64,000 bases of DNA from Sphyrna mokarran (Eukaryota). This document shows positions 4,836-47,000 of the stretch, in pieces. The notes under the pieces are model-generated. The model ran no database searches and was not told where the DNA came from. It saw only the letters and a program-made list of their open reading frames with translations. The stretch covers positions 75,640,001 through 75,704,000 of the forward strand of contig JAGIQG010000006.1 in the NCBI GenBank assembly GCA_024679065.1, read 5' to 3'. Position numbers and translations under genes: made by a program. Position 1 is the stretch's first letter, and each line of letters opens with the position of its first letter.

Positions 4836-5138
4836 TTCCTCCTCGGATAATGTTGTTGGGTGAGGCAATCCCAGATCACCGTTGGTGCATCCCTTTCAGT
4901 GTAACAGGCAACCCACCACCCAAAATTCAATGGTATCACAATAATTATCCTCTGAATGAAACCGATTTTATACTGACACAAATTCATGAGAAGAATATCA
5001 GTGAGCAACATGGTTGCCTGCAGCTGGACAATCCAACCCATCTGAACAATGGGAATTACACTCTATACATTTATAACGATTTAGGGCAGGATAAGGGCAC
5101 AGTATATGCTCACTTCATGCATCATCCTCCTGGTTCAG
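4836..5138 (+). CDS. NTRK2: Trk receptor coding exon, Ig-like domain 2 (neurotrophin-binding d5)
   Basis: Acceptor ttttctctctag|, donor tcag|gtgggt; 303 nt, phase 1-1; FPPRIMLLGEAIPDHRWCIPFSVTGNPPPKIQWYHNN...HGCLQLDNPTHLNNGNYTL...AHFMHHPPGS; HGCLQLDNPTHxNNG is TrkB-like. Confidence 0.95.
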
Positions 5139-8416: not shown

Positions 8417-8449
8417 GCAATGAACCAATCACAGATCCTGAATTTTATG
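8417..8449 (+). CDS. NTRK2: 33-nt extracellular juxtamembrane mini-exon (GNEPITDPEFY), likely alternatively spliced
   Basis: Acceptor ctgcactttttgaaatctag|, strong donor tatg|gtaagt; symmetric phase 1-1; sits where TrkB has its short acidic/Tyr linker exon. Confidence 0.8.
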
Positions 8450-11160: not shown

Positions 11161-11264
11161 GTGCATATGACCAGTTTGAGGAAATCTTTGGTGTGACCTC
11201 TGACAATTCAACTGCAATTGGCCCACCTAATGTCACTGAAAAGACAATGGAAGATGGCATTGCT
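11161..11264 (+). CDS. NTRK2: Trk receptor exon, extracellular stalk preceding the TM helix
   Basis: Acceptor tctctcacttacag|, donor gct|gtaagt; 104 nt, phase 1 to 0; GAYDQFEEIFGVTSDNSTAIGPPNVTEKTMEDGIA; frame continuous with flanking exons. Confidence 0.88.
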
Positions 11265-16377: not shown

Positions 16378-16477
16378 GTGTATGTTGTCGTTGGGGTTGC
16401 AGCACTGGCTTGCACTGGACTGGTACTAATGCTAATAATTCTCAGGTTTGGCAAACACTCCAAGTTTGGAATGAAAG
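16378..16477 (+). CDS. NTRK2: Trk receptor transmembrane exon
   Basis: Acceptor ttttttttctttcag|, donor aaag|gtaagg; 100 nt, phase 0 to 1; VYVVVGVAALACTGLVLMLIILRFGKHSKFGMK(G), cf. TrkB [34 protein letters not shown]. Confidence 0.95.
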
Positions 16478-20133: not shown

Positions 20134-22526
20134 TAAAGGTCAATTTGTAAAATGAGTTTAAGAGATTAAGGTTAGAGTGATGATTCTTTTCCATTCCACT
20201 TCCCTTCTGTCAGCAGGAAAGCATTTGGTTTTTCACTCAGTGCCTCCCCTCTTCTATTTGGCACCGATCAGAACTCCACTTTTTTGAGAAATTCTAACGG
20301 CTGCTTGAAGCACTGTTCACAATGTTTCTACCAAGAATCTGTTCATTCATATCATTGACATGAGAGTATAAGGAAGTTAATCTTTCTTTCTCTTCCTTCT
20401 ATCCTTACGAATCATTAAAAGAATCATGCAAAATCAATAAATTGTGAACAAAATATAATGTTACTTTTGACTTAATTAGTAAGAGATAAAATTAGCATTA
20501 TAGTACTGAAAAATAGATTCATTAGTAACACAGTTGTCTAATCAAGAATCCAACAATGCAATCTAATGATCTGAGAACCATCAGTTAAATGTTATAAAAA
20601 TGAAAAGACTCTACAGTTGACTTCTGGAAAGTCCTTGAAACTCCATGAACAGTAAAGATTTCTGTGTTTAATTTTCCACCAGGACATGCCCCTTATGTAA
20701 AAAAGGATCGCTTGCATCTTTTAAAAACCACTAGAGAGTAGTTTGTGTAAGATATACTGTAGGCTGGACTATGTTACTACTATAAAAAGTAAGATCTATA
20801 AACATTAATTTGATCTAGTAGGAGATTGTACAGCTCTGGAAGTCAAGACTGGGAAGCACAGATAATCTGTACTTTCTTCAGACCGACCATTGCTTTGTCC
20901 TTTTTTTTCCATCATCGGACGTCAGCAGTGCTAAAAATAGGCCTCTAAAATGAGATTACTATAGAGCATAGGACTCTATTTTTAAATATGTGCTCAGATA
21001 TAACAATTGCTTCAGAAGTAAACCACAATTTTATTAGACTGAAGTTTTCTTTTCTATTGTGGCCACGTACAAAGTCTGTGCATATTGATTTAAATTGAAC
21101 TCCTGATGCATTCACCTTGAATGTGCAGATGACTTTAATGATTTGAATAATAAAAGCAATAGATTGAAACTTGATGTGTTAGGGCTAGGTCTAAATAAAC
21201 AATTCAGCAAATATCTACTTATCCTCAAACATAGAGCCTCAATTCATTATTGTTGGGTGAAAAGTGAACGGGAATTTTCACTATGACCAGTGATTACTGT
21301 TTAATTTTATAAATGTTTCTTATGCTCATCTTAATCAAGGTGATTTATTTTGCGAAATGAGGTGCTTTGCTTTCCAGACAACAACTATTAGCATCAAGAA
21401 CTTGGAGTTCAATGGATAGGAGATAACTGATGTAGTCATTCACTGTCAGATTTGATTGGACCAGTTAAATGTACTGCTATTGTTTGCCCAAACTGGTTAT
21501 GATTTCAGTATTAGCCTGGAATGTAGCTACCAGCTTGATTTTCTCTGCTACGAATCACCTTCTTAACCACTTCTCCTCCATCTCTTCCACCATCAGCTCC
21601 AACAATAAGTATGCGGTGTTCATGGGCTTCTTTGCACTAAGGGATTGTCATTTGATCAGCTTCCTCTGTAGCTTTCCTTCTTACTAATATCTCACTGATA
21701 TTAACTTCCTGTAAAGATATCCCTGGCGCTAGATCTGAACTTGTATCTTTTTCTAGTATCTCCCCTATCTCCTTATGTTTCCTCCAAGCTTATGATGCTA
21801 ATCAGGCTATCTCCTGCTCCCTCCACCTATCCCACTAAATGACTGACCACCCTATTTTTCCTGGTTCCCATGTTAACTGATATTGTTAACAAGTTCTCAC
21901 TCTTAAGATGATGTATCTCTCTCTTTCAAATCCACTTTCACCAGCCCATTCTTGTCTGTCTTTGCAAACTCCTGTCCCCCTCTGATCTCCCTTTATCCTC
22001 CAAAGTCTTTGAATATGCTATCATTTCCGAATTCTGTTTCTTAGAAATCTATGTTTAATCCTTCCACTTAGGTTTCTGCCCCAGTCACAGTACAGAAATG
22101 GATCTTATCAAAATGATGAATGACACACTGTGTGATTGTGGCAAAGGTAAACTATCCCTCCTCCTCATGGTCAATCTGTCTGTAGCCTTTGACATGGTTG
22201 ATCATACCCTCAATCTCCTTCAACATCTCAGCACTATTAACCTGCTGAGTGGGACTGGGCTCACCTGTTTCCTTTCTTATTTACCCAGTCATGGCAAGAG
22301 AATCACTTGTAATGGCTGCTCTCCTCACTCCCACATAGCTACCCAAGGATTCAGCCAAGTATCTATCCTTAGCCTCTTCCTTATTCTCAGTTACATACTG
22401 CTCCTCAGCAACATCTTCTGAAAAACACAGTCAGTTTCCACATACATGCTGATAACACACATTTTTTGACCCTTCCACTGCCTGTCTGATATCCAGTATT
22501 AGATAAGCCTAAATCTCCTTCAGCTA

Positions 22527-22702
22527 AAAACAAATTACTGTGAATGCTGGAATCTGAAATCGAAAGGGAAAGTACTGAAAAATCTCAGTAGGTCTGGCAG
22601 TTGACCCTTTGAAAAAAGGTCACCTGGACTTAAAACATCAGCTGTTTTCTCTCACTACAGATGCTGCCAGACCTGCTGAGATTTTCCAGCATTTTCTCTT
22701 TT
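22527..22702. mobile_element. Palindromic Penelope-like relic nested in the L2
   Basis: Same family as 14322; flanked by ctccttcagctaaa / ctcctccagcaaaa duplication. Confidence 0.7.
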
Positions 22703-23234
22703 GGCTCCTCCAGCAAAACATTGGGCAGATTGATACCTTTATCTTCATTCTACATTATGAAGTCCATTCGCTAGCCACTGATATCATCCTTTGTTCTGCC
22801 AAGTGTCCGATGCTCACCAAGATTGTTTGCAACTTTGGTGTCATATTTGATTCAATTTGACTTTCCAATCAGTCAGGCTGCATATTTCCACTCTGCAATA
22901 TTGCCTGACTCCATCCCTTTCTCACAACCTCTACTGCTGAAACACTCACCCAGGTCTTGCTTACCTCTAAAGTTGACTATTGCAACATACTCTTGACTAC
23001 ACGCTGTAAACTTAAAGTTGTACAAAACTCTGCTGCCCTAACTCCTGTTTGTTGGTTCCTCGTTAAGTAAAGTCCAGACATTAAAACTTTCATCTTTGCT
23101 TTCAAATTTCTCCATGACCTCATTTCTCTTTATCTCTGTAACTTCCTCCCGATCTACAACCTTTGAAAATAACTGCACTCCTCTACTCCTGGTTTCTTGG
23201 ACATCACCAGTTTTAACGTGTTTTGTTCAAGGAC

Positions 23235-23612
23235 ATTATAGTATTGTGATTATGTTAATGGATTAGTAATCCACAGATTTTGACTTGTGATCTTGAGACA
23301 TGAGTTCAAATCCCACTATGACTGTGACAGAATTTACATTTAATTAATTAAATAAATCTGGAATAAAAAGCTAGCATCAGTAATGGGGACCATGAATCTA
23401 TCAGGTTGTCATAAAAACCTGTCTGGTTCATAAAGGAAACATGCCATATGTCATTACAGATGCATAGCAATGTGGTTGACTCTTAACTGTTCCCTGAAAT
23501 GGCCTACCAAACCATTCAGTTGTGCTTAAATAGTGGCTCACCATTACCTTCTCAGTGGCAGTTATGGATTGGGGATAAATTGCACACATCTTGTCAATGA
23601 ATAAAATAAAAA
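23235..23612 (+). mobile_element. tRNA-derived SINE nested in the L2
   Basis: B-box gagttcaaatccc, body shared with 1605-1875, A-rich tail. Confidence 0.65.
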
Positions 23613-24824
23613 GCTCCACCGTTGGCAGCCATGCCTTCAGTTGCCAATTGCTTGAACCTTGGAATTTCCTCTCTATCTTTCTCAAAGCTGTTGTTTGAAA
23701 TCTACATAGGACAATCAAACCATTGCTCATTGCCTATGATATGTGGCTTGATGTCAAATGTTGTTTCATAAAGCTCTTTTGAAGTGTCTTGGGATGTTGC
23801 ACTATATTAAAGACACAATATAAATGCAAGTTGCCGTTCTTCCATTAAATTCACTTCAGTCATAGAGCTTTGCCTTGTTTCCTATCTCTTCTGGTAAAAT
23901 AATCAAAAGAGTGAATGTATTCTTACAGTTAGGATTTCCCTTGATCACTTTCAGTGTGACTTTCAATATAACCAATCACGTGTTCTATATTGCACAGGGA
24001 TAATTAAATAAAGACAATCCTACCTAATATCTATTCTTATGAACATTGGACCCCTAATATTATGACTTCTAAATTGTAAGTTACTACTCTAAGGTATAAC
24101 TTAGTGCTCAACTGGGAGTAGAGGATGAGTTGGAGAAAGATTACCGAATTATTTATATAGTAAGGAATGAAATACAAAAACTATGTTGAGTTTGTATGAA
24201 AAGACACATGTAAATACAAGAGATACAGGAATGAGCATGAGAGGAAAAAACAAAAAATGGGCTCTTAGTCCGGAGTATGCTATTTAACTCTTATTAAAGA
24301 ACAAAATCCAGTGAGTGTAGGAGCTGAATACACTGTGTAGCTAAAAAATAAGCTGCATGTGCCTTCATTAATGATTCAGTAACAGTGGTTTCAGTTTTCT
24401 CTCTGTTAAGGGGAGTGCCAGATAATCAATAAATCAGTTTCAAGGTCAGGAATGTGTTCTCCTATATCTCTCTGTCTACCTGCATCAAAAAGCAACACAA
24501 CATGTTCAGGCTATGCATTTCTTCATTGATTAGAGAATTACCAGCTGGAAGACATTCTACTTAAGAAAAATGTTCAGTATTGCAAATATGTACCAGTGTA
24601 CTCTTTGCAGAGAAGTACCATGCAGACGTTTATAGTGTAATGTTTATTTCCATGTAGTTTTATCTGTTTTTATAACAAATTTTAAAATGAATATTGGGAA
24701 GTTGTTTTGCTCCTGATACATCAGGTTTGTTTGCCTTTGACTTACACAGTAGAAAGTGGGAGTAATGTTGCTGCTGGCATTATTGTGCTTTTCCTTGTTC
24801 TTTCATCCAAATAAATTCAAAGTG

Positions 24825-25752
24825 CCGAATTCGTGTAACAATTGGAGTAAATTGTGCTTTTTTTCAGTGGGATTTTCAAAATGAATCTCCCAGACTCTGT
24901 GCCCAAGCATGAATCATGCTAAAAATCTATGTGCAGGGTCTAATCCCTCCTTTGCTGGGAGGCCAGAAGCAAAGCTCTGAGCGGGTCACTGTGCACGCGC
25001 CAATCTGTCAGTGCGGAGATCAGCAAATGCGCAGTGGCGGCCGTGCACTGCTGGCCTCCCGATCCCTGGCCAGCCCTGCGACTCTGCAATGCTGCGCCTC
25101 CAATCCCCTTACTTCCCCGCCTCTCCCATTGCTGTCCCCCCCGGACGTGTCTGGGCCAGCCCCTACCCCCCCCCACCACAGCAGTCCCGATCTCCTGATT
25201 TCCTTTGCGCCTATGCCCTTCCCCACCATTAGCAGACCCGTCACTCCCCCGGCCAGCCTCGATGGCTCTCCACTCTCCCTCTGACTACGAACCCAAATTC
25301 AGAGTGGGAGCAGGGCCCCACTCCCCTCCCCCCAACCTGATGCTTGGTGTGCAGTGTCAAGTTGCCCTTTGGGTATTTCCACTTTGCCCCTTGAGCAGTA
25401 CTAGGTGGCCAGGCTGGCATTACTAGGCTGTCAATGCCCACGAGGCACCATTTCTTACTTCCTGGGCTCAATAGCCTCCCTTAACTCCAGCGGTGTAGGG
25501 CCGCCAGCTCCCTGTTAATGTGGAGCTGTTGTAAGCCCTGTTGGAGTGAAGCACTCCTGGCGGGGGTGGGGAGACACTAGCTGGCCTGGAGACTTCAGTC
25601 CCGGGCCCTTTAATGATATTAAAACCTGAATTTAAATATTTTAATTAGCTCCAACTGATTTTCAGTGCAGAGCTATGATGCCGAAAATCCAGTGGCCAGA
25701 GACATGCAAAGGTTGCTGGAACAGTGCAGCAGACTGGGAGAATTGCCCCCAT
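24825..25752. mobile_element. GC-rich non-autonomous DNA transposon (putative Harbinger-type)
   Basis: Ends in gggagaattgcccc (TIR type shared by the MITEs here); C-rich interior resembling ~43770-44640. Confidence 0.5.
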
Positions 25753-28727
25753 TATTTTTTCCATGGTATTTAATAGATCTGAAGGAGGAATCTCTTCAAC
25801 AAGTTTCTTTCAAAAGTCGAAGAATAATCAATGCATTTCCCCCACCCCACACCCTGAAGTCAATCAAATTCCAGTTGGTACAAGCAAACCTCTTGATGAT
25901 TTTGCAGTATTCCCACTTGATGTATAGAAAGAAGGTCTTGCTTTCCTATATAAGCTTTGAAGTCCTCAGAATTCCCTCAAACTCTTTGTAACCAATTAAA
26001 TATTTGTGAAGTATAATCACTGTAGGGTCAGAGGAGGAAACAAGGTAGCCAAATCCTACAGAGTCTGACAGAACCTGATTTTTTTTTTAAATGATGGTGG
26101 CTGATGGATAAAAATATTGACCAGGACACTGAGGGAAAGCTCCCCCGTTTTTCTTTTAAATGATTTCATGAAACCTTTCAAGTCCATCTGAGAAAGCAGA
26201 TAAGCTCTTGGTTTAAAATCTCATCTAAAAGACAAGAGCTTTGATGGTGTGCTAATCACTCAGTACTCCAGATAGTTAACACAGATTCTTTATTGAATTC
26301 AAGGGAATGGTGCTTGAGCGTAGAATTTTCAGAGTTGGGAATGCAGTGGTGGAACATTGGAATTACTAATGTTCCAATCCATTTAATTGATTCTTCCCTA
26401 AGCATTGTGCCAATTCTATGTTGACAGTCAAATTATGGATAGGTTTCTGAAATTTTTAAATGTTAAAAAAAAAATCATTCCGTCTGATTAATATTAAGGT
26501 GTTTGATTTTGTTCCATCCATATTTGTTAACCGCTGGAGGTTTTATTGTTTTATTTTGAATGATGATATCGCAAGTGGAAGTATGAGCTGAGCAATGTAT
26601 TGTGACCAACATTGTGAGAATTGAAATGTCGTCAGTTGAGACACAATCATTAACCCAAAAGAACTTCAGCATGAAGTTGTCTTCTTCTTCTCATCCATTG
26701 AGTGGTGCATAAAGCAGATTTCATTTGTTTCCATAGCTAGTAATCCATGCAGCAGGTCTCTCGCCAGGGGTTTATAGCTTGAGACATCAAACGTGGCTGA
26801 CCAGGAGTTTCTCTTGCTCTTACTGCCAGTCATTGGTGAGTCTGCAAGGAATTACAGGTTGACACACTGAATCCACTTGACTGCGATCTGAACGCACCTT
26901 TCTCAGCCATCAAGTCCCAAGGTGGGATTTGAACACAGAGCTATTGGCTCAGAGGCAGGAATGCTACCTACTGCATGAAGTGCATATGCTAATTCAGTTT
27001 GGGAGGTTTTCCAACCAGATAATCCCAATAATAAATCCAAATTCATCATTTCCACAAAAATATTTAGGTATAGCTGAACAAAAAGAGTGTATGGTCAATC
27101 AAAATTCTTTTGCAATGACTTGCTAACATTCAGAAAGGATTTCAAATCTCAGCTAGGAAGCCTGCACAGAGAGCGGTTAGTGGTTGCTGACCAACTGACT
27201 GCCTGAAAAGGGCACAAACAGGCAGCTGTATAGATTCCTGTATTCTGAACATTGGGCAGCCTGGTGGCCACCCACAGGAGCTCAGTTGTGGGGAAGGATT
27301 CAGATGAGTCAGTTGGGTAGGAAGCGGAGTGCTCAGGGACCACCTGGACTTCCTGAAACCACAAGGAAAAGTTTAAATCTTAACTTACTGCATCTATTTT
27401 TTCGATCATTTTTCTCTGAACTGGAAAGACACAGAGGGTGGCTCGCTCAATTAGTGGTTAAAATGCAATCAAGTCCTATGTCCATTATTCCTATTAATTA
27501 TAACTAGTTATTAAAATGGTCTGGTGTCTCTCTGCAGCATTCAAGTGGACTGCCTGCACAGGCGAACCTGCTGCCAGACCTGTTGAGTATTTCCTACATT
27601 CTCTGTTTTGGTATTGGATTTTCAGCATCTGCCATGATTTGCTTTTGTTGAGGAATATTGCTGGCTTCCACCCTTGGAATTAAAATTTCTCATCTAGTTT
27701 GTATTTTTTAATTCAGGTTTTAAATATTTCAAGACCCATTTATATTATTAAAATTACTAAAACCTTTGTTCAAGGTCATTTGTTAATCTGTAATCGCAGC
27801 AGATAGTGTTAACTTTGATTGGTGCTGGTTAAATAAACTTATTGCCTCCAGGAAGTGGCAATAATTTTGAATGAATAAGCACTTGGCGGGGGTCAGTGTG
27901 AATCTCACTGGAAAAAAGACCATCAAAAGGCATTTGAATTAACCCTTAGATTAACCAACCATCATGCTGCTGTGAGCAACAAATCAATTAAAGAGCATCA
28001 GAGTCTCAGCAATAGTGGACAGGTGGCGATCAAAACTTTAAGTTGTACTTGTTTTGAATATCTGGTTTTGCTAGTCAATACCTTTTCATAAGATCAGCTA
28101 CAAATATTAGTTTAGTGTTAGAGTGTATGTTTCATCTAATCAAGTTCAATTCTGGGTCAGAAGTATGTTTTAATGTGTCATCTTATCTCAAATGGTAATA
28201 CTCATGGTCCAAAGATGTTTAAACTTGAGTCTGTACCAAGATAGGGTTTATAATCCAGGCTGAGATTGTAGAGGAGTATTGCATTGCCAGTGGGCAGTTG
28301 TTATACCAATGTTCAGGTTGTTATTAAAGACACCAAGGCATAATTCAAACAAAAGCACTGAACCTATTTGAAATTCTGGTTAACATCTCTTCCTCAACCA
28401 TGAACAGAACAGATTAAGTAACTATTAATTTCATTGCTCTTTGTGAGGTGTTGCTGACACTGAATGATAATGCATGTGTCCACATAATCAATCCACCTCA
28501 AATGTATGCATTTGCATTACATGAAAATTGTTTTATGATTTTTCAAAATTAAAAGGCACAACATGCAAATAATAACAATGTTTGTAATAATATTACAGTA
28601 GAGGAATAGATGACATATGTGCCTGTGCAACAAATATCCAGAGTAATGCACTGTAGCAATCACATTTCCTGTGCTTGATCATGGTTGTAAAACCCATTTA
28701 ATCAAATTGTACACATAAGCAGTTTAT

Positions 28728-28742
28728 CCACTAGATGGAGCA
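28728..28742 (+). promoter_or_regulatory. CTCF-like binding motif
   Basis: ccactagatggagca matches the CTCF core CCACYAGRKGGCRS closely; lies in non-repetitive-looking intronic DNA. Confidence 0.5.
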
Positions 28743-29809
28743 TTAATTAGGCAGCCGTTAGTGCTTTAGAGGATGCTCATGTTTGTTTAATACTTGTTAG
28801 ATTAAATGTGACATTGGTGAATCCATGTTGCCTGCTTTTCACTGATGAAAGGACAAGTTGAGACTCACCAATTCTTTTATTTCTTCTATCAAAAGCCATG
28901 TTAATTTTTTTAGTACAGGTTACAGTAAAATACTATATTAGTCACATTGTCCCTAACAATTTTTTGTGGGGCTTCTCCTTTTAAGCTAAATACAACCTGA
29001 ACAATATTGCAGAGGCAAGCAATTCCCTCTCATAGAAAATTACAGACAATTTTCTATTAGAAAATTTGATTCCTTTAATTCCTAAAATATTTTGTATTTT
29101 AAAAATTAGACCCCCGTTTGCCAAAAATATGACCATCAATTCCATGTGCAGAGTAAATTTGTGTAACTTTTTCTTGTGTTTGTTGAAATCAGCAGTTTCC
29201 GTCCATGAACTTATGAGATTATCTGATTCAAGGATTGACAGTTTGTGAAAATGGAGAAATCTGATCTATTTGCAATCCCATCTATTTCTGTATCATAAAA
29301 CTGTTACAAAAGAAAAATTCATCTGTATCAATAAAAATCTTTGGTGGATTTTATACCCAATCACACCTGGTGGGAACATTGCAACTAGAGGTTTAAGATG
29401 GCAGGGAGGAATTGCTCTGTATTCCTCACATGTCCTCCCATACCATTTTATCTGACCTGAAGTTAGAAGTAGAAATAATAAAGGAAATTTCCTGCCCCAG
29501 TGGCAATGTCCCCAGAGCTGTATCTACCTTGCTGGAGATGGTTTCTGTAGGTTCCAAGTAGTGGCTTGACAGATTCCATCTGATCCTCAACAACTCTCAT
29601 TTCTTATCACTTATGTGCTATTTAATGGCCACTTAAGTACCACACCTCAACATCATCGTTATTTTTTTTCTGTGGCAGGGGGAGATCCATGCCAGGTGAG
29701 GAGCCTGATAGCTTTAACTGAGTGAACTGGTATTGGACAAATGCCTGGGAACCTCCTCTGGAGTCTCCTGTGCCAATTGGAGCCATCGCCATGCCCCACC
29801 AAGGTCATA

Positions 29810-30125
29810 GAGTCATAGCAGTTTACAGCAAGTTTCAGCTCCACTTGTCTATACCGCCCTTTTTTTTAAACCACTAAGCCACTCCTAATTGTCCACATTT
29901 GGCCCATATCCCTCTATATGCATCTTGCCCATGTAATTGTCAAAATGCTTTTTAGTCAAAATTGTATCTGCCTCTGCTACTATCTTTGGCAGCTTGTTCC
30001 AGAAACTCACCATTCTCTGAGTGAAAAAAAAAATGCCCCTCTGGACCCTTTTGTATCTCTCCCCTCTCACTTTAAACACATGTCCTCTTGCTTTAGATTC
30101 CCATACCTTTAGAAAAAGATGTTTA
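29810..30125 (-). mobile_element. CR1-type LINE 3' end
   Basis: Minus ORF SKARGHVFKVRGERYKRVQRGIFFFTQRMVSFWNKLP. Confidence 0.85.
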
Positions 30126-31937
30126 CTACAAAGTTGATCCATCACTCTTTAACTCTGCTCCCTGGCCTATCAAATCTGACCCTCCATTCTGTCATCCCCT
30201 TTGCAGGGACATTATTTCTCAATATCTTTTCCTTAATTGAAGAAAGTTTGTCAAAGAGTCAACATCAATAATGTGGGATGCAATCTTGATGATAAGTCAA
30301 ATCATATTAAGAGGTTGCCAGGAGATGACACGTGACATGGGTTTCGACTACCTAGAGATAATATGAGGGAGGATGACAGAGTGAGATAGAAAACTCCAAT
30401 GTTTGAAGTCCTGGGATAGTAGAGTGTGGAGGTTGAGGGGAAAGAAAACATGTAGCAAGGCACATTTCAATTTCAAAGGCACAAGACAGGAAAAGACAAA
30501 GGAGCGACAACCGTAGTCAATCAATAAAGTACAAGAAGTCAAGATTATAATGGAGACAGGATTCATGATGAGTCTTAAATTTGAAATCAGGAATATCAGC
30601 TGCTGTAAATCCAGAGTCCAAAATATCACAAACACTTACATGTAAGAGATTTTGAAAATTCAGTGTGACTCTCACAATGCTGCATCTATCAGCTCCAAAA
30701 GCGAAAAAACCTTGCAGGAATTTCCATCCATTGATATTAATAAATAGGAAAAGCTGTTTGGGAGGCCTAATCTGTGTGGTAGATTCCTATTGCTGCTGTT
30801 GGCACACAAAATTTTAAACTGAAAGAGTAATAATCTTTAGTATCAAAGGGCTTTCTGGAAATTGGTGTTTCTAGCAGTTGTATGGCAGTCCTAATGAAGG
30901 GCCTCTTCCAGAAAATGACTTGTGCTCTTAATGTCTTTGAAAAACATTGTCAAAAAGATATTCAGTTGTTCTGTCTGTAATCGTGCGCAAGTATTAGCAA
31001 AAAATTTATCCATTGCTGTCACTGAATACTGGATAGTGGGTACTGCAATTCACAGAGCTGGAGCATGGAGTTTGGTTTTTTGAAGTTATAGAGATAATTT
31101 AGCTAACAATGAATGAACCATTTTGCTTCAAAATTGTTTCATGTTTGTATTTATCATTTTCTATATTGACTTTTAGTAACTCAAGTTTAATCCAAATGAA
31201 ACAATCAGCAAAACTGAAGCAGCATGTCCCATTTTAAGCCATTTAAATTAATTCAGGGTGAACATGTGGGGCTCACCATGCTTTTCTTTAAGAATATTCA
31301 GTGAAAAAGTAGTGCAATTTTAGACTCTGCTGTTGTTCTCCAAGGCAGTGTACGTCTGTCCTGCCTTTCAGCATGCTCTGGAGTCCAGTCTTCCTCGCCT
31401 TGCAACATTGCAGAGACTTTCATACTCAGCAGGGAAAGTTAGTATGTGGCATTGGCAGCTGACTAAAGTAGAATGATGGCATGAGCATATTGCTTCAAAT
31501 CTAGGATGTCTTAAGAGAAACACTGTAAATGATTTCTGCTAAAACAACCAAAATAAATGGCTAGGATTTTCTTCTCACAATTGTACCTTAAAGTTGACAA
31601 GATCTCTGCATAGAATATGGAAACTGAGGAATTCTGCTGTCTCACTATTCTCATCACAAAGCAGGTGGTAGCAGCAATGAGGCACTTCCAAACTTCTAAC
31701 AGATAACCCTCATAACCATATCAGTTACCTTTGCTATCCCAAGCGAGGTAATAGTGGGCCCTAGGCAGACAGATAATGATGCTGGGTACCTACAAGTCAG
31801 CCAACCTTACCAGCTTCAGCTTAGCCTTAGCTCAGTGGCAATACTCTCTCTTCTATGTCAGGAAGCTGTCAGGATGAAAAACTTTATGTTGACCCTCCAT
31901 TGTTCCACTCTGGCAGTGTTGAACTGTCAGAGAGTTT

Positions 31938-32073
31938 GGCAAGAATTCTCCAATCTTGTACGCACTGCCACCGTTGCCAGCGAGAATACAGAATTTGGCG
32001 CTCAGCCAAAACTCCATTCACTGTAGAGGGACAGGAGAATCCCAGCCGCAGGCAAGGTTGGAGAATTCCAGCC
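31938..32073. mobile_element. 136-bp MITE with ~21-bp TIRs
   Basis: ggcaagaattctccaatcttg vs caaggttggagaattccagcc; a related truncated copy lies at ~34424-34533. Confidence 0.75.
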
Positions 32074-32464
32074 ATCATTTTTCAGATAAGCATTATAGTA
32101 AGGCCTCATCTATCTTTTACACTTTAGGCTGTTGTGAAAGATAAGAGTGGGATTTTCCAGCCCTCACTCGCCTCAAAACTGGAAAGTCCCACCAGAGGTC
32201 AACGGATCTTTGTAAGGTCTGCACCATCTGCCCATTACAATTTCCATGCTGGCAAGATGAAAAAATTCTCCCTAAGTCTTTCTTTCTGTTCTATTCCTGT
32301 GCAGTACCACAGGGATTTCACAGTTGGAGAGTTCCCTGTTGGTAGCACGAGTTTCCAATAGGCCAGTGAGTAAATGCAACTTACTTGACGCCAGGTTAAA
32401 AAGATCAAGATTCCAGGTTTAACCCATGGTCTGTGTTAAATTAGCTGATCTCTGTCAAAATGGT

Positions 32465-32805
32465 GTTGTTGTGTAGAACTGGGTAAACACGAAGAAGTCT
32501 CACAACAGCAGGTTAAAGAGATTTATTTGGTAGCAAATGCCACCAGCTTTCAGGCTTCGGAGATACACATCTCTTTAACCTATGCTTAATGCTATCTCCA
32601 CTCACATTGTTTGCACCTTTAAGACTTGATTAGCTGTAAAGACTCATATTCTAACCAGTATTCTGTAAACTGAGTGTATCCCTTTATATGCCCTGTTTGT
32701 GATCATAACTCCCCACTCACTTGACAAAGGGGCAAAGCCTCGAAAGTTAGTGATACTTGCTACTGAATAAATCTGTTGGATTTTAACCTGGTGTTGTGAG
32801 ACTTA
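32465..32805. mobile_element. Penelope-like relic with inverted termini and degenerate hammerhead
   Basis: aagtctcacaacagcaggttaaa ... tttaacctggtgttgtgagactt; cactcacttgacaaaggggcaaagcctcgaaagttagtg. Confidence 0.7.
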
Positions 32806-33733
32806 AAACAGTGTTGGACAGGGCAATTGGCAACAAGGTTCTTTTCACTCATTACTATTCAGTAACTCCTGCTGGAAACTGTATATATTTGGAAATTTAT
32901 TAATAACAAGATCAGACTCAACTATGTTGATTCCATAATTCAGTAGGGTGGGCCAAAGCTCATGTGGAGCATAAATACCATCATCAAAGAATCAGGCTGA
33001 CTGGGCTTTCTCTGTGCTTAAAGTTAATGTCTGTTGACATTCATGTGTTCAGGTTCCAACATAAAGTCTGACTACTTGACTGAGGTTATAACTTCCATAA
33101 AGCCAGCCTAATCTGCCTTCAGGAAATGTGGGAAGAAAATTTGGGAAGAAATATCAGGAATCGGTGAGGTTGGGATGCTTAACATATTTGTAGAGTTGAA
33201 CAGTTAGCCCATGTTAATGTGTTAATCAATTATTATGAGTAAACTAAAGAATCATTAAAATGATTGGTGATTTATTCAGCATTAAGCCTTGTTGCAGACA
33301 TTCATTCAAAAAATATTCATTCAAATTCTTTAAACATTACCATGTTTAGTTTTGAAAGGTGAAAAATGATTTACAAAATGGGCACTCAGCAAAGAAAGTA
33401 CAGATTCTAATTTGCCATAGAGACTTTGGTTTTATTTAAAGCATTTTGTTTGTTATAATTTCTGAGTTTGATTTGCCTTAAGTCCATTTCTGCAGCATTG
33501 AGCATTTTTCTGTGAGCACTCAAACCAGATTATAGAAATCCGGATGCACCCAGTGTTGCAGAATTTATACGAAAAGTCCAGAAGCCCATATCTTTATCTC
33601 TCTGTTTATTCACAGAAAGAAATGCACATATCTTTGGAGGGAGGGCATGGGGTGAATGGAAAATTAAACCTTTTCACTATCTAGTGAAAAGTTTTGCAGC
33701 CTATCTTCATTTTTCTTTTGTTAAATTTTATAG

Positions 33734-33762
33734 GAAGACAACGGCATATTGTGGAATGGTGA
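33734..33762 (+). CDS. Candidate alternative terminal exon (coding part) of a truncated, kinase-less TrkB isoform: G-RQRHIVEW*
   Basis: Long U-rich tract and tag| acceptor (tcttcatttttcttttgttaaattttatag); in phase 1 with the TM exon it gives a 9-aa tail then TGA; followed by non-repetitive AT-rich UTR-like sequence and a polyA signal. Confidence 0.45.
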
Positions 33763-34096
33763 AACAAGTGGAGAAGGCTGTCATGCAGATTTGATTTTAA
33801 GGAAATGTACCAAAAGGGATACTGCCTCTTTAATTGCATGTCTAAAGTGAGCTCTAAGTGCTAAAACGAATTACACATTTGACTTCATTATTGTTGCTCC
33901 ACTGCACTTCTTTTTGATGGGTCAACTCAATGCTACATTGCAAGGGTTATAATTAAAGTAATGGCCCATAAGGCTCGCTGGATATGTTCTTCTCATGATT
34001 CAGAGCAGTCTTGGATATAAAGTAACTTTCTAAATTTCATGTCATTAGGTTTTAATTATTTTGTTTTTGTTTTGTTATTTTAATTGAAATGCTACC

Positions 34097-34135
34097 AATA
34101 AAACAATGGTACCTTTTTGTTTTGGTTGTATTTTA
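34097..34135 (+). promoter_or_regulatory. Candidate polyadenylation signal with downstream U/GU-rich element
   Basis: AATAAA at 34097-34102 followed ~10-30 nt later by tttttgttttggttgtatttt; U-rich upstream sequence. Confidence 0.45.
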
Positions 34136-35310
34136 TCATTTATTCTATTTTGTTTGGAGCTACAACTGATTCCACCTTCTGGAATATGATTATGACCTTA
34201 TCATTTGAAATTCTTGTGTTCTTTTTGTTGCTGTATGTATATTTTATTATGTATAAAAGATTGAATCGTTGGATTTTAAAAAAAATGTAATTTTCAGACA
34301 CAAAAAATAATATAGAATAGACTAAGTACTGAAAAATTGACAATATCACTCCATTCTCCTCTTCATCAGAGGTTATTATAAACACAAAAGTTCAAAAGCA
34401 TCTAATTTATGATATTAATACATGGGCCAGAATTCTCGAGTCTTGCATGGCCTGCCACTGCTGGCAGAGAAAATGGAAAACTTGCACTTAGACAAATCTC
34501 TCTTCATAGCAGCGAGACTGGAGAATCCCAGGCATTTTTTTTGTCAAATAGAAGAGGATAGGAGATTAGTCCCTTGTTTGAAAAAAATCATTTAATCTCA
34601 GAATCCTATCTGCTCCCTAAGCGATTTCCCTGTTTGAGTCTGAAACAGTAATTAATGTCACCAAGCTAAGCAATTTTGTTGTAGGTTCAGATGCTGCTAT
34701 GGTTTTTGTAATGAAATTGTTAAACATGCTGTGCTTTTGACAAGCGACTGTGCACTGATGATGTGATTTTCATTCCAAACAAGCATAACCTTCTGTACAA
34801 GATAAAATTCAAAGCCACATCCAGTTCATTAACTGAGAAAGGAACGCACCAACTATGACGGATCTTTTTTTTTCTCGTTTTAAGAAGAGGTGAGCCTGAA
34901 CCATGTTTCCTGCCCTTGCCCTCACCCAATCAATCAGTAGCTGAACAAGTGCAAGGAAATGGCTATTGAACCCTCCGCTGGAAACCATGAAAATAATAGC
35001 TCTCGTTGAGCTGCATGGAAATCTTTCTTTTTAATGGTGCACCTCACTAAATGCCTCTCACTGTGTGCTCAGTTATTCTGTGCCAACATTGCATAGGTCA
35101 TTCTTTTCTTGGCAACGTAATAAAGCAAAGGATATTGTCCCTCAATTATTATTTATAAAGTATATTGCTACACTTCCTGGGTCATTTTACTCTTTTTTTT
35201 TATGCATGCATGCTTGGTATCATATAATTTGGCATACAGAACTAAAATGTTACCTCACTGGAAACCAAGTAGTCTGACAGATAAAAACAAGTATTTTTAA
35301 TTCTTTTTAG

Positions 35311-35328
35311 CTTGTGATGAAATCAGAG
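35311..35328 (+). CDS. Candidate 18-nt in-frame cassette microexon (A-CDEIR-G) in the intracellular juxtamembrane region
   Basis: ttttaattctttttag|CTTGTGATGAAATCAGAG|gtaatt; symmetric and open in phase 1; overlapping TGCATG pair ~100 nt upstream. Confidence 0.3.
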
Positions 35329-37619
35329 GTAATTGAGAGAAAATATTACAGAAGAGTTCACACGTTCTTTTCTTCGTGACAGAGAAATCGATTTTTAAAG
35401 TGGAGATTTTCAAAAAGAATTTAATTCTCGCCCCTCCATCGACATGAGAGCTGGCAGCAATCGAAAAACAGCTGTTATCAGGAGACCTGTCTCGTTTAAA
35501 TTCAAATCAGGCATTCAGTTGGCTGTCATTTGAGTTCCAGACTCATGAGAGGAGAATTTCCTGTTGGAATTTCTCCTCCAGGATGGATGTGCTGCCTCTG
35601 ATAGCTGATGGTCAGGTCACTTTTCAGTACTGGCAACACCACTAGGAGCATTGCCCCGTGCTGTTACTGCAATGAACCCAAGGCTGGAGCCCTGGAATAC
35701 AAGTAAGTTGGCACAGAATTTTCAGGGCTAGTCAGACAACCATGGGGGAAAGGAGCAGTGTAAAGGACTGGGTTGTGTCTTCCTGTTGGTCCCTCCCTTA
35801 CCATCAATGGATCCCTCTGGGCACTAGGTGCCTGAGAAGGAGATATCTGCCCTCAAACAAACCATAGACATGCTCATCAGGGTTTACCTGGCAGTTTGCC
35901 CACATGGTGTGATCTCCACATACTATTCATAGATCATTAGCAATTGTGATTTGTGGGCTGTGATTAAATTGTGATTAAATGACTGCATAAGTAGTCCTTA
36001 AGCGGTCATTTAAAGGCCTCAACTGGCCTGAGGTTTAAAAAAAAACTATTTTTTGATTCTTCCAACCCCTGAATTAATGAGGGAGTAAGGTGGGGGGAGC
36101 AATTGACAAGGCAATGTGGTCTCCAACCGGACCTTCCTTTCCTATTATACAGCCCCCTATTGCAGCTCCTAACCCCCTCTTGGACACAGCATTAAATCCT
36201 GCTCTTCATCTTATAAAGTGCTTCTGAGGACACAGTAGTAACATAATGGTTTGTGTTTCATATCACAACAACATTCAATTAAAAGGAAAGTCTAAAAATC
36301 TATCGTGGTCGGTCTAGATAAAACTATTCATGTATTTTAGCATCTGCTCAACTATGAATAAATTGTCTGTATCGAAGCATCCTGTCTTCCGTTTGAAAAT
36401 TCAAGGACAGAGCATCTGCCCCACATCTGCAGCTTTAAGTGAAGGAGCAGATTTTGGGAAAGAAAGAAGTTGATTCAGTGTTGTTCTGTTTGATTGCGCT
36501 TTTCATTTTCCTATTAATATTCTTCATGAGTTTTTTCTGAGGGGTGAAACTCCCCCATTATGTTTCATTTGGACAGGAATCAAGTAGCTTTGTGGTGGGG
36601 GAAATGGCTATGCATGTGTGAATGTGGCTGGCTACTAAAGTGTGGGAGAGGAGCTTGTTGCAGGATTAGGAACTGGCAATGAGAGGGGCAAGAAGGACAA
36701 CTTTTATAATGAATTTGAGTTTGTCAGCACTGATGGTGGCCACCTCTTCAAATAAAATGTGTCTCTCTCACCCTTCACACTTTTCCTTCTGGGAATAGTC
36801 CTGAATAATACATGTTTTCAAATAAAATCAAGCATCTATTTATCAGCGAAAAACAAAAACTTCAATGTTTTCTGTGCTTGGCTTGAGGCTCTTGTTCCTT
36901 TCCGAAGATTACGGAATACCCCTGGACACAATAAAGACCGAATCTTTTCACACAAATTTCTTTTCCGCTGCGAGTATCCCTAGATTAGTTAAGCCTTCTT
37001 TTGAACAGCCAGGAAACCTATTCATGCCAATAGTGCACAAAAAAAAATTTTTTAACGAGTACCTGACAAGAACAAGGATGAATAGAACAGAGCATGGATG
37101 GTAGCAGTTTGGAATATAAAATTAAACTACTGATGATGAGTGAAAAAAAGTATTTTGTTATTGGTGGTGAAGTTGTGAGGGGTGCACAGCTGTTTAAACT
37201 GCTATACAATGGTAGAGTAATCCAACATAAAAAATGTCCATGAATGTTCCCTTCCACACATTTTCTTGTACCTCTTGTTATTTTTTACAGTTTTTATAAC
37301 ACACTGCAAATTTCATTTTATTGCCCTTGGCAGTATTAATGTCAATGAAAGTCTTGGTCTTCATGGAACAGGAAAACAAACTTTGCTACTTTGTCCTGGC
37401 TTTACTTTCTTTTTTCACAACTCTATTGTTTCTACATTGCTAAGTAGCATCAGTGCCACAATTCACAATGTGGATGTTAAGGATTCATAAGTACGCAGAA
37501 TGCAGCGTGGGACCACAAAGGCCCCTTCACTTGATTCCTTCCCTATAACAAACAATATGTGCTCATTACACTTTTTTTGGAGGTCAGTAAGTTAACGTTC
37601 TGAGGGTGAGAAACTGGGC

Positions 37620-40600
37620 TTGTTAACATTCATTTTCTGGGTGCTATGTATGTCCTCCGAGCTCCAAAATGGCATCCACAATGCATATGCACACTGTAGG
37701 GTGAGTCAGGCTGGCTGTAATATTGGTATGCATGTTTATGTGCGCTAACTACTGGAATTATACAGAGCATGACACTAATCCTGAAGCCAGCGATACCATT
37801 TTGAAGTCCAGTGCCCCAGTCAATGCTTCCTCTTAATCCGTGCACAGCTGAATATGCAGATAGCATCAGGAAGGATTCCTCACCAAGCTTTTGAAAAGAA
37901 CAAGAACTACCTAACAGGTTAGCATCTGATGAATTACTTCTGGCTGTTGCTTCGATTCTGCAAGAGTTTGGTGTTGCTTTGTGTTGTTGTTTAAAGTTAT
38001 CAGTGTCTGCAGGGGTTGGTGTGGCAGATGCACTTTACTGAGAATATCCTCACTGAAATCCTTCACCTGCTGCGGCCACATCTGCAACCTCCAAGCAGAG
38101 TGCAGACCGCATTCCCAGTGGCTGCACAAGGTGACTTTTATACATTTAGTTCCTTCCAGGCTGGAGCTCGATATGTTTGTAGCATCTCACTATTTACCAT
38201 CCTCTTAAAAGTGTGAGGTAATTCACTTTGGCAGGAATAACAAATGTGTAGAGTATAGGGCTAATGGTAGGACTCTTAATAGTGTTGATGAACAGAGGGA
38301 TCGTGGTGTATATGTGCATAGATCCCTGAAAGTTGGCAATCAAGTCGATAAGGTTGTTAAGAAGGCATACGGAGTCTTAGCTTTTATTGGTAGGGGGATT
38401 GAATTTCGGAGCCGCAACGTCATGTTGCAACTGTACAAAACTCTAGTGCGGCCGCACTTGGAGTATTGTGTGCAGTTCTGGTCCCCGCATTATAAGAAAG
38501 ATGTGGAGGCATTGGAGAGGGTACAGAGGAGGTTTACCAGGATGTTGCCTGGTATGGAGGGCAGGTCTTATGAAGAGAGGCTGAGGGATTTGAGGTTGTT
38601 TTCGTTAGAAAGAAGGCGGCTAAGAGGAGACCTTATTGAAACATATAAGATGATTAGAGGTTTAGATAGGGTGGACAGTGATAGCCTTTTTCCTAGGATG
38701 GAGAAAGCTAGCACGAGGGGACATAGCTTTAAATTAAGGGGTGGTAGTTATAGGACGGATGTCAGAGGTAGGTTCTTTACCCAGAGGGTGGTAAGGGTAT
38801 GGAATGCCCCGCCTGCTGCAGTTGTAGATGCGCCAAGTTTGGGAGCGTTTAAGAGGTTAGTAGATAAGTTTATGGATGAAAAGGGAATGGTTTAGGTTAG
38901 AGGGTCATTGCTTTTTCTTAATTGGTCGGCGCAACATCGAAGGCCGAAGGGCCTGTTCTGCGCTGTTATGTTCTGTGTTCTTATTTTGTATAAAGACCAT
39001 CATTAAGGCTCTCTATTCAATGAGAGCTAACTGCATTTCATTTTCTCTTAGCGAAGACAAGCAGGCAAATGGATATGTGGCTTTGCCACAATTGCAGGCT
39101 TCCCCATGATGCAAAATGTCACCGACTGCCTGCTGTTAATACTACCTATATCAGAACTGACAGAGATTCCATTCCCTCAATATGCAGCTAGTGTGGGACT
39201 ACAGGCAGTGAATTATGCAGACCAATGGTCATTATCTTGGCAGCAATCGTGGTGGTCAGTTTCTTCTGTGCTCTCTAGTAGTTGAGTTTGGAGACAGGGA
39301 AGGCAATACTTAGGCATGAGAGTGGCTGTTGGGGATCTTTGCCATCTTCCCACCTCTACCCGAGTTAAGTCTGGAGTGGGAAGGCCCATGGCTGGCCTTC
39401 ATAACCCACTGCTAATTGACATTCTTTAATCAGCAATTAATTACCCTAAGGGCCTCATTCCACTGCTGCTGGTATCGACACAGCTATGGGTGGGCAAGTC
39501 TTTTGGTCTTCAGAGAATGGATTCAAAGGTACTCTGTCTAATCAAGCAACCCAGAGCCAAGAAGAGAGGTCCTGCTGAAAATCACATCCTGTCCAGCCAG
39601 CCCAAATCCCCTAAATCCTCCTACTCCACTATCCCCGACCTCACAGAACCACTCATGCAATTACTTGCCACTGGCCTGAGTCACTCCTCAATACTGAGCT
39701 ATCATGTCAGCTGCAGTCACCTGCTAGCCACTGTTTGGCCAACAGTCCTTAGTAGCCCAGGATCCTGATCCCAGGAAAAGGCCCGCCAATGGTTTCTCAT
39801 CTGCCTGATTGGCTGTTGGTATAATGGGCCTTCCCCAGCATTTCTCCAGCCAGCAGCTAACCCTCAGCATCTCCTCAAGATTCCACCAGATCTCTTCATT
39901 TTGTGGAAGTCTATTACACCAGCTGTATTTGAGCCATTGTAGCAAACCAAAAGGTGGCTTATTGTGTGACCAGGGCGATCTGCTGATGGTATGGTGGATG
40001 AATTCAGTGCAAACCTTATTCAGAAGCGTGAAGAAAACTTGCAGTGAAAGCCATTCTGCCTCATGAAATGTGATGGAGCCAATCATAGGTGTGACCAACC
40101 AACATGCTGAACATTTTTCACACTGCAGAAGTTCTGCTGCTGGAACCAAATGCAGAAGGCGACACAATAGCTGACAGTAGCTGCCAGCAGCTAATTAGCA
40201 GGTTGACTCAGAGTAAAGACCAGCAGTTGTGCCAAATTGCCATCACTCCTGTTGCTGGCAGGAAGACATAATGGCAACAAGACATCAGGCCCCCATCTTT
40301 TCCCAATTTTTGCCAATACGCCCGGCTCCCTACCTTTCTCCAAAGAGCCTGCAGAATTCAGCTCACTGCTGCATTTGGCAAAGCATAGTTGTTTGCTGCA
40401 TGCCGTACAAGCTGTTCGTAAAGAGATAACCTTTTTCACCAGATGTACAGCAAGCAGTTGAGGAAAAAGAGCATGATGATGAGGAGGAAGAAAAATGGGA
40501 AGAAGAAGAAAGGAGAAAGCAAACATCTCTTTTGGCTGAGTTATCTGTGTAGAACTTATCTCAATGTGTTACCAGATACTGCAATCATGATTCTCCCTTC

Positions 40601-44000: not shown

Positions 44001-47000
44001 CAACCTCCGCCAACACCTGCCCCCCATCTCTACTACCCAGATCAATCACGGTCACGCTACCATCCCTTTGCAGAGTGGCAGCAGGCCACCTCTCCTTCCC
44101 TCCCCTTTCCTCTTTCCACCAATAACTGCAAAGTGGCAACGGGGTCCCTCCTGCCATTAGCCCTGCACCCATTGACCCTTCCTCATTAATCCCTCACCCC
44201 CTGCACTGCCCAGATGCTAGAGTGGCACTGCCAATCTGGCACTACCCACACAGCACCCCCCTTGCCCTTGGCCTCCCAAAGAGCCTCAGTGGCCTCTGGT
44301 TCCATTGGCAGAATGAAGTTGACTGCTCCCCTTTCATGGGGAGCATGTCTATTCCTTGCTGGCAAGAACTTTTCCCGGTGAGGTGATAAAGGCAGATGAG
44401 CTCGGGTGATTGTGCATCGGGTTCGCTAATGAAATGTAAATGCTTCTTTAAACAAATTTCAGTGCATTAAACTGCCTGTTGCCCATTTGTGGCAAGAGGC
44501 TGACCATGCTGGAAATCTGGTACTCATAAAATGGTATTGATTGCAAAACCCAGTGCCAATCACACTAATTGCTTTACACCCTACTTTATAGCCATGTCAC
44601 ACCCCAAAACAGACACAATGTAATGGTAAAATTTCCTTTTGGAAATGCGTAACAACCACATAAGAGAGTATCATCTTCTTTAGTGAAGACAGATGTACAG
44701 TGTTCATTTAATAATTAGCAATGCCCTATGCCTCCACAAGGAGATTTCCTTTTTTGTCCCTAATCAGCTCTGTCCTTCTTTGAACTACTATTTTCAAAAG
44801 GCCTTTGTGTTCCTCATATGACAAGTGCTAAACTATGATCATTCTTTCAACTTGCTCCCTTTTTTTCTCTTTTATTTCTTCATTGTAATTGTAATATTCA
44901 ATTTGGTTCCTCATTGAATTTTGAACCCAATATTTATCATAATGTTTTTTGGGTTCAGTTTAATCTCGATTGGTTACATAAATGGATTACAAAACTCTGA
45001 CACACTATTTTGAAAGAAATAGAGATCTTGAATATTGATATGATGAAAGATTATTTCTCAAATACCAGGATATGGCACATTCTATCAACTTGTCCTCCTT
45101 TAAAAGACACTGTTCAATTCTGTGCCTTGTTTTAAATTTCTTTTAAGCTTAGTTACCTTTCTGGAGAGAACTAGATGCACAATGTTGCACTTATTTTTTC
45201 TTCAGAGCAAAAACAGTTTTCTTCTGCCTTCCCAACCTCACACCACATTTGTATGGACATATATCGGGAAGATCTGGTGTGCAAAATGCATCTTGCATCT
45301 CTCTCTCAAGGTTGGGAGTCACGATTGTGATGATCACGGAAATTTGTATTTTGTGTGGTGAGGTGGGGTTCAGGAAGCATTAAAAAAGTCACATCTCCTT
45401 GGAGAGGTTATGACCACTGGGAAGTTTGTTAAGGTGTTGGGAATATTCTGACAGGTAAGTGCATAATATTTTCATACTTTCAAATATCACAATTAAATGC
45501 TGTATTGTAATGTAGTTGTCTTTTAGTGCAGGGATTAATCATAAGGATCGGTGCTGCAAAAGGAGGTTGACTTTTACATTGATCCGCATTATGTAATTGC
45601 TGTCATGTATTACAGTACTTTAACAATTGTCAAAACATCATTGTACATTAAAACGTAAAGCAAAATGTCCTGTCAGCCTCCACTATCATGCTTTGTACTA
45701 TGATTTAAATCGTCTGATTGCTTCAGTTGTTAAAACAATTTCTGATTTTGATTGTTGAAACAATATCAGCAGCCACTCCCTTCCATTAATTGATCAGCTT
45801 TGCTTTGAAATTAAAATGGGATACCATTATTTATATCAGTTTCAGGCAATGTAACTGAAAACATTCATCACAAAAACTGTAGCCATTATGAATATTTGGC
45901 TGAGTTTCAAAAGCTATTCATGGCTTCAGCTTAGCAGGGTGGTCTATTGATCCAAGAACGATTGACATTTTAAGAGGCTATATTAACAAAATATACCATT
46001 GATATGGTTTTCTCTTGGCTTATAAACCTAATTGCCTCTTAGATAGTTATATTTATTTTATACTGCAGAATACTTCCCCAGTATTAATGATACTGTGTTT
46101 GAATATAAAATGTTATTGGATTTTTAGATTTTTTTTAGTGATTTTAACATAATTCCCATTGCTATTGCATTGTTCATGAGGACTGTACATGGTAGATATA
46201 AATTCACTATCTGGTTCGCTAATGTAATTTAGGGAAGGAAAACTGTCATTCTTACCTGGTCTGGCCTACATGTGACTCCAGATCCACAACAAGGTGGTTG
46301 ACTCTTAAATGTCCTCTGAAATGGTCTGAGTTCAAACATGATTAAGGTTGACCCATCCCATAAATGAATTAAAAAGTGAGTGGTTATGGAGGATACATGT
46401 AGGACATGTATTGGAACCTGAGAGGGCATGTGCGTGGCATTGAATGACAGGAATTGTAAGGTGGCATGGAGTGGCATGGAGATGGCATGAATGGATAAGA
46501 TTTATGGGGCCTATAAATGAAGTCAGGAGTGGGCTGCCATGACAAAAATTTAGGCAGGCCTTCAAATCAGCCCGTCTCTGCACCCACTCAAATTGCGTCA
46601 CGGCTCACAAGATACACTGTAAACACAGACCCTGTGTGAGAAGACAGAAATCCCACACCGTCATTCATGGGTCGGGTGTACACTTCAGAAGGCACAAAAG
46701 TATGGGGGTTGAGTTTTTCTGAGCCCACACAAAATTCCCAGTTTCCATCTAAGTGTTCACATGGCTTCCTTTAATGCTACCGTTGTTTTAATGATGTCTT
46801 TTTCTTTACATTTTCTTTTCTTCTATCACAAAATAACAATCTAAATAATAATACCTTTCATCATCCTTCATGTAATAAGAAATGTCACAAACCACAGCAA
46901 TGTTGTCTGTGAGGGCATCTTAACTTGAAACAGTGGTTCATAGTGGTGCGTAGTCTTGTTTTGGAATGTTGTGAAAAGTCACATGAAACGCCCAGAGAGA

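Follow-up and report, generated by a model that had tools for sequence, protein, structure and literature searches.

We report that NTRK2, the gene for TrkB, has an alternative last exon in the shark Sphyrna mokarran that very probably gives rise to a kinase-less TrkB ending in GRQRHIVEW, a form common to skate and chimaera and the likely counterpart of TrkB-T1, the truncated receptor that binds BDNF and damps full-length TrkB. On the sequences compared here, cartilaginous and bony vertebrates each have a conserved tail at this position of the gene, and the two tails differ. The comparison points to a kinase-less TrkB, though not to its tail sequence, as a feature of jawed vertebrates as a whole. 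This amounts to a tail swap carried out by nature, with which to address an old question: how far T1 acts as a decoy (possible with any tail) and how far through tail-specific signalling. The isoform is missing from the elasmobranch NCBI entries examined, which matters for work on BDNF and TrkB in catshark and skate.

In mammals and birds, TrkB-T1 (NTRK2 exon 16, tail FVLFHKIPLDG) is likewise encoded by a last exon that lies between the transmembrane (TM)/juxtamembrane part and the first full-length-specific exon. According to sections of the TrkB-T1 review, this exon has its own stop and a 3′ UTR with several poly(A) sites, and the receptor has a short tail without the Shc site or the kinase (PMC8934854). 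The same source describes T1 as both a dominant negative and a ligand sink, with a tail that is required for calcium signalling and that binds Rho GDI1 (PMC8934854). Mammalian T1 is described as the main TrkB form outside the nervous system (PMC10325033). In the sections of the review that were available, conservation of the T1 tail is cited only for rodents, human, and chicken.

The window analyzed here is a stretch of 64,000 nt, to which the coordinates below refer unless a genomic location is given. A sequence-only reading of it had proposed a shark-specific terminal exon that truncates TrkB with a tail unlike that of T1. We follow this proposal through assembled sequencing runs, protein collections, and the literature.

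A spliced alternative last exon of NTRK2

The window is part of NTRK2, on the + strand (Table 1): its ectodomain and TM exons are nearest to TrkB, and the exon ending in ENPQY follows them. The second Ig domain exon encodes what we take to be the neurotrophin-binding domain of Trk receptors. It is 98% identical to TrkB of the catshark Scyliorhinus torazame and matches Pfam I-set with a score over the cut-off. The shark protein P0136 contains the translation of the TM exon without a single change. About 5 kb past the end of the window, at G000:C1215:75709072, comes the next exon of the full-length form (GPSSVIST...ENPQY; 98% identity to P0002), and the intron between the TM exon and this kinase-path exon is about 52.6 kb long; we scanned it entire, with the gap beyond the window included.

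Our run search listed 22 runs, of which 20 contain the terminal-exon stretch (13 studies, 8 coded organisms); an RNA origin is guessed for 14 of these 20 and on record for none. Four of the 20 (X1, X2, X15, and X3, from four studies and organisms A, B, C, and C) were mapped to 16300-35300. The RNA evidence consists of assembled contigs, from three runs guessed to be RNA and one of unstated kind. The junction 16477->33734 lies within a single contig in every one of the four mapped runs (from 4 studies and 3 coded organisms). The junction contigs are 2052, 1150, 1715, and 1952 nt long, cover the TM exon, and pass over a stretch of precisely 17,256 nt bounded by GT..AG, the raw contig joint of 16475->33732 having been shifted by +2 to read as GT..AG. 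They have 98 letters on the shorter side of the junction, a depth of 5.5-30, and 0-1 differences in the terminal exon. The terminal-exon stretch is single copy in the genome, and a retrocopy as the origin of the joint is ruled out, there being only one genomic match.

The shark terminal exon is a real spliced alternative last exon of NTRK2. Its layout is that of T1, in which the TM donor is spliced to an acceptor within the next intron and an in-frame stop comes after a short tail, ahead of the Shc site and the kinase. What the sequence-only reading had described at this site is all there: the U-rich acceptor ending at 33733, the phase-1 splice from the TM exon giving GRQRHIVEW and a stop, and a non-repetitive stretch with TGCATG, the AATAAA at 34097, and a U/GU-rich downstream element (a search for tandem repeats in the stretch found none). 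Its central claim, that the exon truncates TrkB with a non-T1 tail, is borne out by the spliced junction in the four runs, where the 16477-to-33734 joint that it had put forward as a check is seen in the assembled contigs.

The 3′ ends of the four junction contigs fall at 34090, 34113, 34125, and 34040, with none beyond 34125. Two of them thus end 11 and 23 nt past the AATAAA at 34097, and the other two stop ahead of it. Contig ends are a weak hint at RNA ends and no proof of them, and the poly(A) site behind this signal is a putative one. Low-depth contigs at 34643-35097 (X15) and 34866-35040 (X1) are separate from the terminal exon; together with the AATAAA at 35119, they possibly reflect a form with a longer 3′ UTR.

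By themselves, the motifs of the terminal exon are no more than chance expectation. Acceptor-like sites number 108 in the intron; at 17 of these, an early stop and, within 500 nt, an AATAAA follow. The density of AATAAA is 0.84 per kb. The exon exceeds chance because its spliced junction occurs in 4/4 runs and because skate-type and chimaera proteins have the same tail. Its 3′ UTR has no stable structure (z = 0.73), and positions 30000-40000 of the window have no Rfam match.

Table 1. NTRK2 exons and sequence elements in the window
Feature	Position	Strand	Basis or remark
Second Ig domain exon of NTRK2	4836..5138	+	splice sites read from sequence
Extracellular juxtamembrane exon, 33 nt	8417..8449	+	fits linker of shark TrkB P0136; AG/GT ends
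Extracellular juxtamembrane exon, 104 nt	11161..11264	+	fits linker of shark TrkB P0136; AG/GT ends
Transmembrane (TM) exon	16378..16477	+	ends KFGMK plus 1 base, phase 1 (AAA G/GTAAGG)
Pyrimidine tract and acceptor AG (33732-33733) of terminal exon	33700..33733	+	sequence; used in 4/4 runs
Coding part of alternative last exon, (G)RQRHIVEW and TGA (33760-33762)	33734..33762	+	sequence; skate/chimaera proteins
3′ UTR of kinase-less isoform, one TGCATG at 33835	33763..34125	+	junction contigs, 0-1 differences
Proximal polyadenylation signal AATAAA	34097..34102	+	U/GU-rich downstream stretch about 34113-34160
Possible distal polyadenylation signal AATAAA	35119..35124	+	putative longer 3′ UTR form
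TGCATG	33835, 34444, 35012, 35203, 35207	+	sequence

Other features of the locus concern the intron and the Trk family. Interspersed repeats at about 19340-20030, 22560-23460, 29860-30080, and 32020-32800 are covered by very many piled-up contigs in each of the four runs and are probably SINE/LINE copies, and the six long intronic ORFs have no Pfam match. A paralogous Trk exon (L003, G000:C883:4227755-4227934), with 67% identity to the TrkB ENPQY exon, is probably an exon of NTRK3.

The tail in skate and chimaera

The tail is not confined to sharks, contrary to the 'shark-specific' label that the sequence-only reading had given it. P0004, a Logan protein of skate type (472 aa, seen on 26 contigs), ends in GRQRHIVEW and is identical to Leucoraja erinacea TrkB at 463/463 residues as far as the junction; the tail is present in 6/6 members of its cluster. 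P0006 (UniProt V9KMQ8) from the chimaera Callorhinchus milii ends in GRQRHIVEC, with the last residue changed from W to C, and agrees with the full-length Callorhinchus entry at 458/458 residues. These are the two kinase-less chondrichthyan proteins among the best 120 of 197 matches listed. The shark tail is identical to that of P0004 at 9/9 positions and to that of V9KMQ8 at 8/9, and both proteins represent the same isoform as in the shark, deposited under a generic receptor name or nameless. The shark-batoid split is placed at 306 Ma and the chimaera-elasmobranch split at 421 Ma (in the part of PMC3692497 available); since the chimaera has the tail, the tail dates to about 421 Ma.

To compare the tail with its flanks, P0136 was used in place of the window's own protein. 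Past the junction residue, the skate tail is identical to that of the shark at 8/8 positions, versus 19/33 for the TM exon (binomial P 0.012); against the last 88-90 residues (63/88 identical), P is 0.069. The chimaera tail (7/8) is conserved no more than its flanks (P 0.17-0.31).

Among the listed NCBI-type elasmobranch entries (26; 15/17, 8/8, and 3/3 cluster members), none is kinase-less. Residues 380-472 of P0004 as query gave three matches among 49 candidates and nothing new. When HMMER was run with the cluster representatives, multi-Ig giants dominated, and the 17 Trk-like proteins among the 150 matches listed had no such tail.

Three side observations belong here. In a comparison involving P0004, P0005, P0150, and P0151, the TM segment of skate TrkB is unusually diverged, and those of other rays, birds, and frogs are near the shark sequence. 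A second kinase-less Callorhinchus model, P0128 (A0A4W3ITT0), ends in another peptide, GLDHHITE, for which no counterpart was found in the shark intron; it may be a gene-model artefact. The only metagenome match to the shark tail pattern (L005) has 60% GC, a stop shortly before the match, and no Trk context, and we discarded it as chance.

T1-type tails in bony vertebrates

A profile search for relatives of 116-606 residues (best 120 of 126 listed), combined with cluster look-ups, yielded at least 34 proteins with T1-type tails (20 distinct), collected by the pattern G-[FCYS]-[VA]-[LMF]-F-[HQ]. Their owners are mammals, birds, snakes, one frog, one caecilian, and many teleosts, a wider range than the amniotes to which the sequence-only reading had assigned T1. 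The tail reads GFVLFHNVPVEVVAR in zebrafish 'isoform 6', GFVLFHTVPLDG in the frog Ascaphus, GYVLFHKIPLDG in the caecilian, and GCVLFQNIPVEVVSR in percomorphs; the teleost proteins include P0291, P0270, P0283, P0284, P0287, P0302, and others. Bichir, gar, sturgeon, coelacanth, lungfish, and lamprey contributed no kinase-less entry with a spliced tail among the matches listed. As far as sampled, T1 thus appears to be a feature of bony vertebrates.

The T1-type proteins of teleosts and amphibians resemble the shark form in being kinase-less, in having a short tail, and in using the same junction after KFG[MIL]K, and the teleost tails share with the shark tail a V-E pair near the end. GRQRHIVEW nevertheless falls outside the T1 type. 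It lacks the block by which the 34 proteins were selected (and which all of them therefore have), it counts nine residues versus the 12 of T1 (junction G included), with no measurable similarity, and it begins with basic and polar residues where T1 is hydrophobic. The proximal 3′ UTR of the shark is only about 360 nt. The shark exon lies 17 kb past the TM exon and 35 kb ahead of the next one; mouse T1 is described as having two 50-kb introns (PMC12435732). TrkB-Shc is, like the shark form, a kinase-less NTRK2 isoform, but it is described as keeping the Shc-binding site (PMC10325033), whereas the shark stop lies about 35 kb upstream of the exon with that site (ENPQY), which sets the shark form apart from TrkB-Shc.

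The sequence-only reading had failed to find a canonical T1 exon in the window, and the wider search agrees: none was detected in the 52.6-kb intron, and an exact search of the genome with a degenerate pattern found none either. The T1 peptide, run against six frames of the intron (105,116 windows), reached a best score of 27 versus a self score of 60, and the teleost DNA profile reached 29 and 40 versus control scores of 39 and 45. The degenerate T1 pattern had 0 exact matches in the G000 genome, a search that a diverged copy would escape, and the teleost T1 pattern had 0 matches in the metagenome scans.

In the literature searched (subscription journals and supplements lie outside it), no paper was found for the shark, zebrafish, or percomorph tail strings, and nothing relevant for a kinase-less TrkB of cartilaginous fishes. 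The word 'truncated' is absent from the available text of two catshark neurotrophin papers (PMC10253963, PMC11993139), and the zebrafish TK- form of TrkB is treated without a tail sequence in the available part of PMC12686537. The tail sequence is already deposited (V9KMQ8), and we found no paper that names it.

Two observations concern other exons and models of this region. In P0098 (Acanthochromis) and P0160 (Catharus), the T1 exon is read in a shifted frame, probably through annotation or assembly errors; together with their in-frame relatives, these models fix the T1 exon DNA almost uniquely. Birds, lizards, and gar (P0016, P0156, P0008, P0171) each have cassette exons peculiar to their lineage in the intron after the TM exon. 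Two bird cassettes, the gar cassette, and GLDHHITE are absent from the shark intron, where they score at best 20-27 versus self scores of 40-177. The intron between the TM exon and the next seems prone to exon recruitment.

Common descent or independent origin

We lean slightly toward one ancestral last exon of jawed vertebrates, whose tail would have diverged between the cartilaginous and the bony lineage, possibly by a shift of the acceptor. We do so because the two exons share intron position, phase, and last-exon design; sequence cannot decide the matter. The rival account, which the sequence-only reading had raised as a possibility, is that cartilaginous and bony vertebrates each recruited another intronic site, such that kinase-less TrkB arose twice. 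It concerns origin only and is compatible with a real exon. We regard it as quite possible, if somewhat short of an even chance, and divergence of the shark exon and T1 from a common ancestor as at least as likely.

The peptides themselves are on the side of independent origin. In a comparison with the 20 T1-type tails, the shark tail was equalled or outscored by 1164-2410 of the 2616 peptides taken from other AG sites of the intron, depending on which of five scorings was used, which places the apparent similarity of the shark tail to T1 at chance level. Over more than 400 My, however, a tail of 9-12 residues can lose its similarity. Global alignments of the tails slid off the ends and were uninformative, and the H..I.VE that the shark tail shares with T1-type tails by eye was unsupported by the five-scoring test.

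At the DNA level, the indications are divided. T1 DNA profiles were inferred from two annotated reading frames each of the bird and the teleost T1 exon, and the bird-derived DNA agrees with a mouse T1 primer (PMC6715404) except in the first codon. The teleost-derived profile misses the shark site (ranks 593 and 522 of 751 bins; scores 13 and 23); with the bird-derived T1 sequence, by contrast, the same profile gives a good alignment (scores 39 and 45), which favors two separately recruited exons. The bird-derived profile, on the other hand, ranks the shark site at 62 and 33 of 751 bins. The 26-base mouse primer also speaks against two origins, matching shark 33718-33743 at 16/26 bases, ungapped, with its U-rich F-V-L-F-H-K codons over the shark pyrimidine tract and AG. 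The same score is reached by 19/52,568 positions, 18/656 bins, and 6/107 other acceptor-like sites, and we treat the match as suggestive, since it falls short of significance once the several templates and settings tried are taken into account, and since U-rich sequence readily produces matches.

The layout of the locus can be read in both ways as well. With 17 motif-complete candidate sites in the shark intron, recruitment looks easy, which favors two events. Against them stand the shared intron, phase, and last-exon design, the presence of a single exon of this kind in each lineage, as far as the examined proteins show, and the absence of a T1 remnant from the shark intron.

A more specific version of common descent is that the shark exon is the ancestral truncating exon and that the T1 tail arose in bony vertebrates by a move of the acceptor about 19 nt upstream. 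We consider this unlikely; it rests on the 16/26 primer match, which is non-significant after several tests. If it were true, the old pyrimidine tract would have become the U-rich F-V-L-F codons, with a changed frame, and the 'invariant' T1 signalling motif would be exonised splice-site sequence on an older decoy receptor.

Proposed mechanism and function of the kinase-less receptor

The TM donor at 16477 serves two paths, one to 33734 and the other across about 52.6 kb to the kinase-path exon. When 33734 is used, translation stops after nine residues, and the Shc site and the kinase are lost. Cleavage past the AATAAA at 34097 would terminate the transcript, and 3′-end formation there would compete with the splice that leads to the kinase-path exon, another 35 kb downstream. 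With its stop in the last exon, the message should escape nonsense-mediated decay. As the full ectodomain and the TM helix are kept, the protein would, by analogy with T1, hold neurotrophin back and combine with full-length TrkB into inactive pairs. The kinase-less TrkB of the shark is likely a BDNF decoy and a dominant-negative receptor. The calcium signal of T1 depends on T1's own tail and therefore need not apply to the shark tail.

A further possibility is that GRQRHIVEW is an active signalling or sorting motif unlike that of T1, with a basic RQRH, a hydrophobic end that may bind a PDZ domain, and a role beyond the decoy; we hold this to be rather doubtful. The RxR ER-retention and PDZ-binding readings of the RQRHIVEW tail are presumptive and are not counted as evidence. 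In favor of an active tail, shark and skate have it in identical form although their TM exons have diverged (19/33), but splicing signals within the exon's first 29 nt, or the slow evolution of chondrichthyans, could account for this conservation, and the last residue is C instead of W in the chimaera. That Trk tails can signal is clear from the short tail of T1, with its calcium response and Rho GDI1 binding (as described in PMC8934854).

Leaky intronic polyadenylation, with the junction as functionless splicing noise, would be in keeping with exon motifs that are common throughout the intron and with the absence of the tail from the listed NCBI-type elasmobranch entries (26, three clusters), but it is very improbable. 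Conservation of the tail over about 421 My, from shark to skate and chimaera, largely refutes it, and the junction lies within long contigs in 4/4 runs and the skate-type protein on 26 contigs.

RBFOX motifs

In mouse, TrkB isoforms are described as being under RBFOX control via tight deep-intronic motif clusters and not via the 3′ UTR (PMC12435732, PMC6715404), the clusters holding nine and seven (T)GCATG motifs in about 300 nt (PMC12435732). The shark intron has at most four GCATG per 300 nt (at 46426), less tight than the mouse clusters. The 1.5 kb past the shark acceptor contain four separate TGCATG (Poisson P 0.003, for a window picked post hoc), a number also reached by 12/961 other overlapping windows. 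We take RBFOX control of the shark terminal exon as a lead only. The densest intronic GCATG groups, at 46426-46730 (four in 300 nt) and 49742-51240 (seven in 1.5 kb), lie downstream of the terminal exon and are possible counterparts of the downstream RBFOX cluster of mouse.
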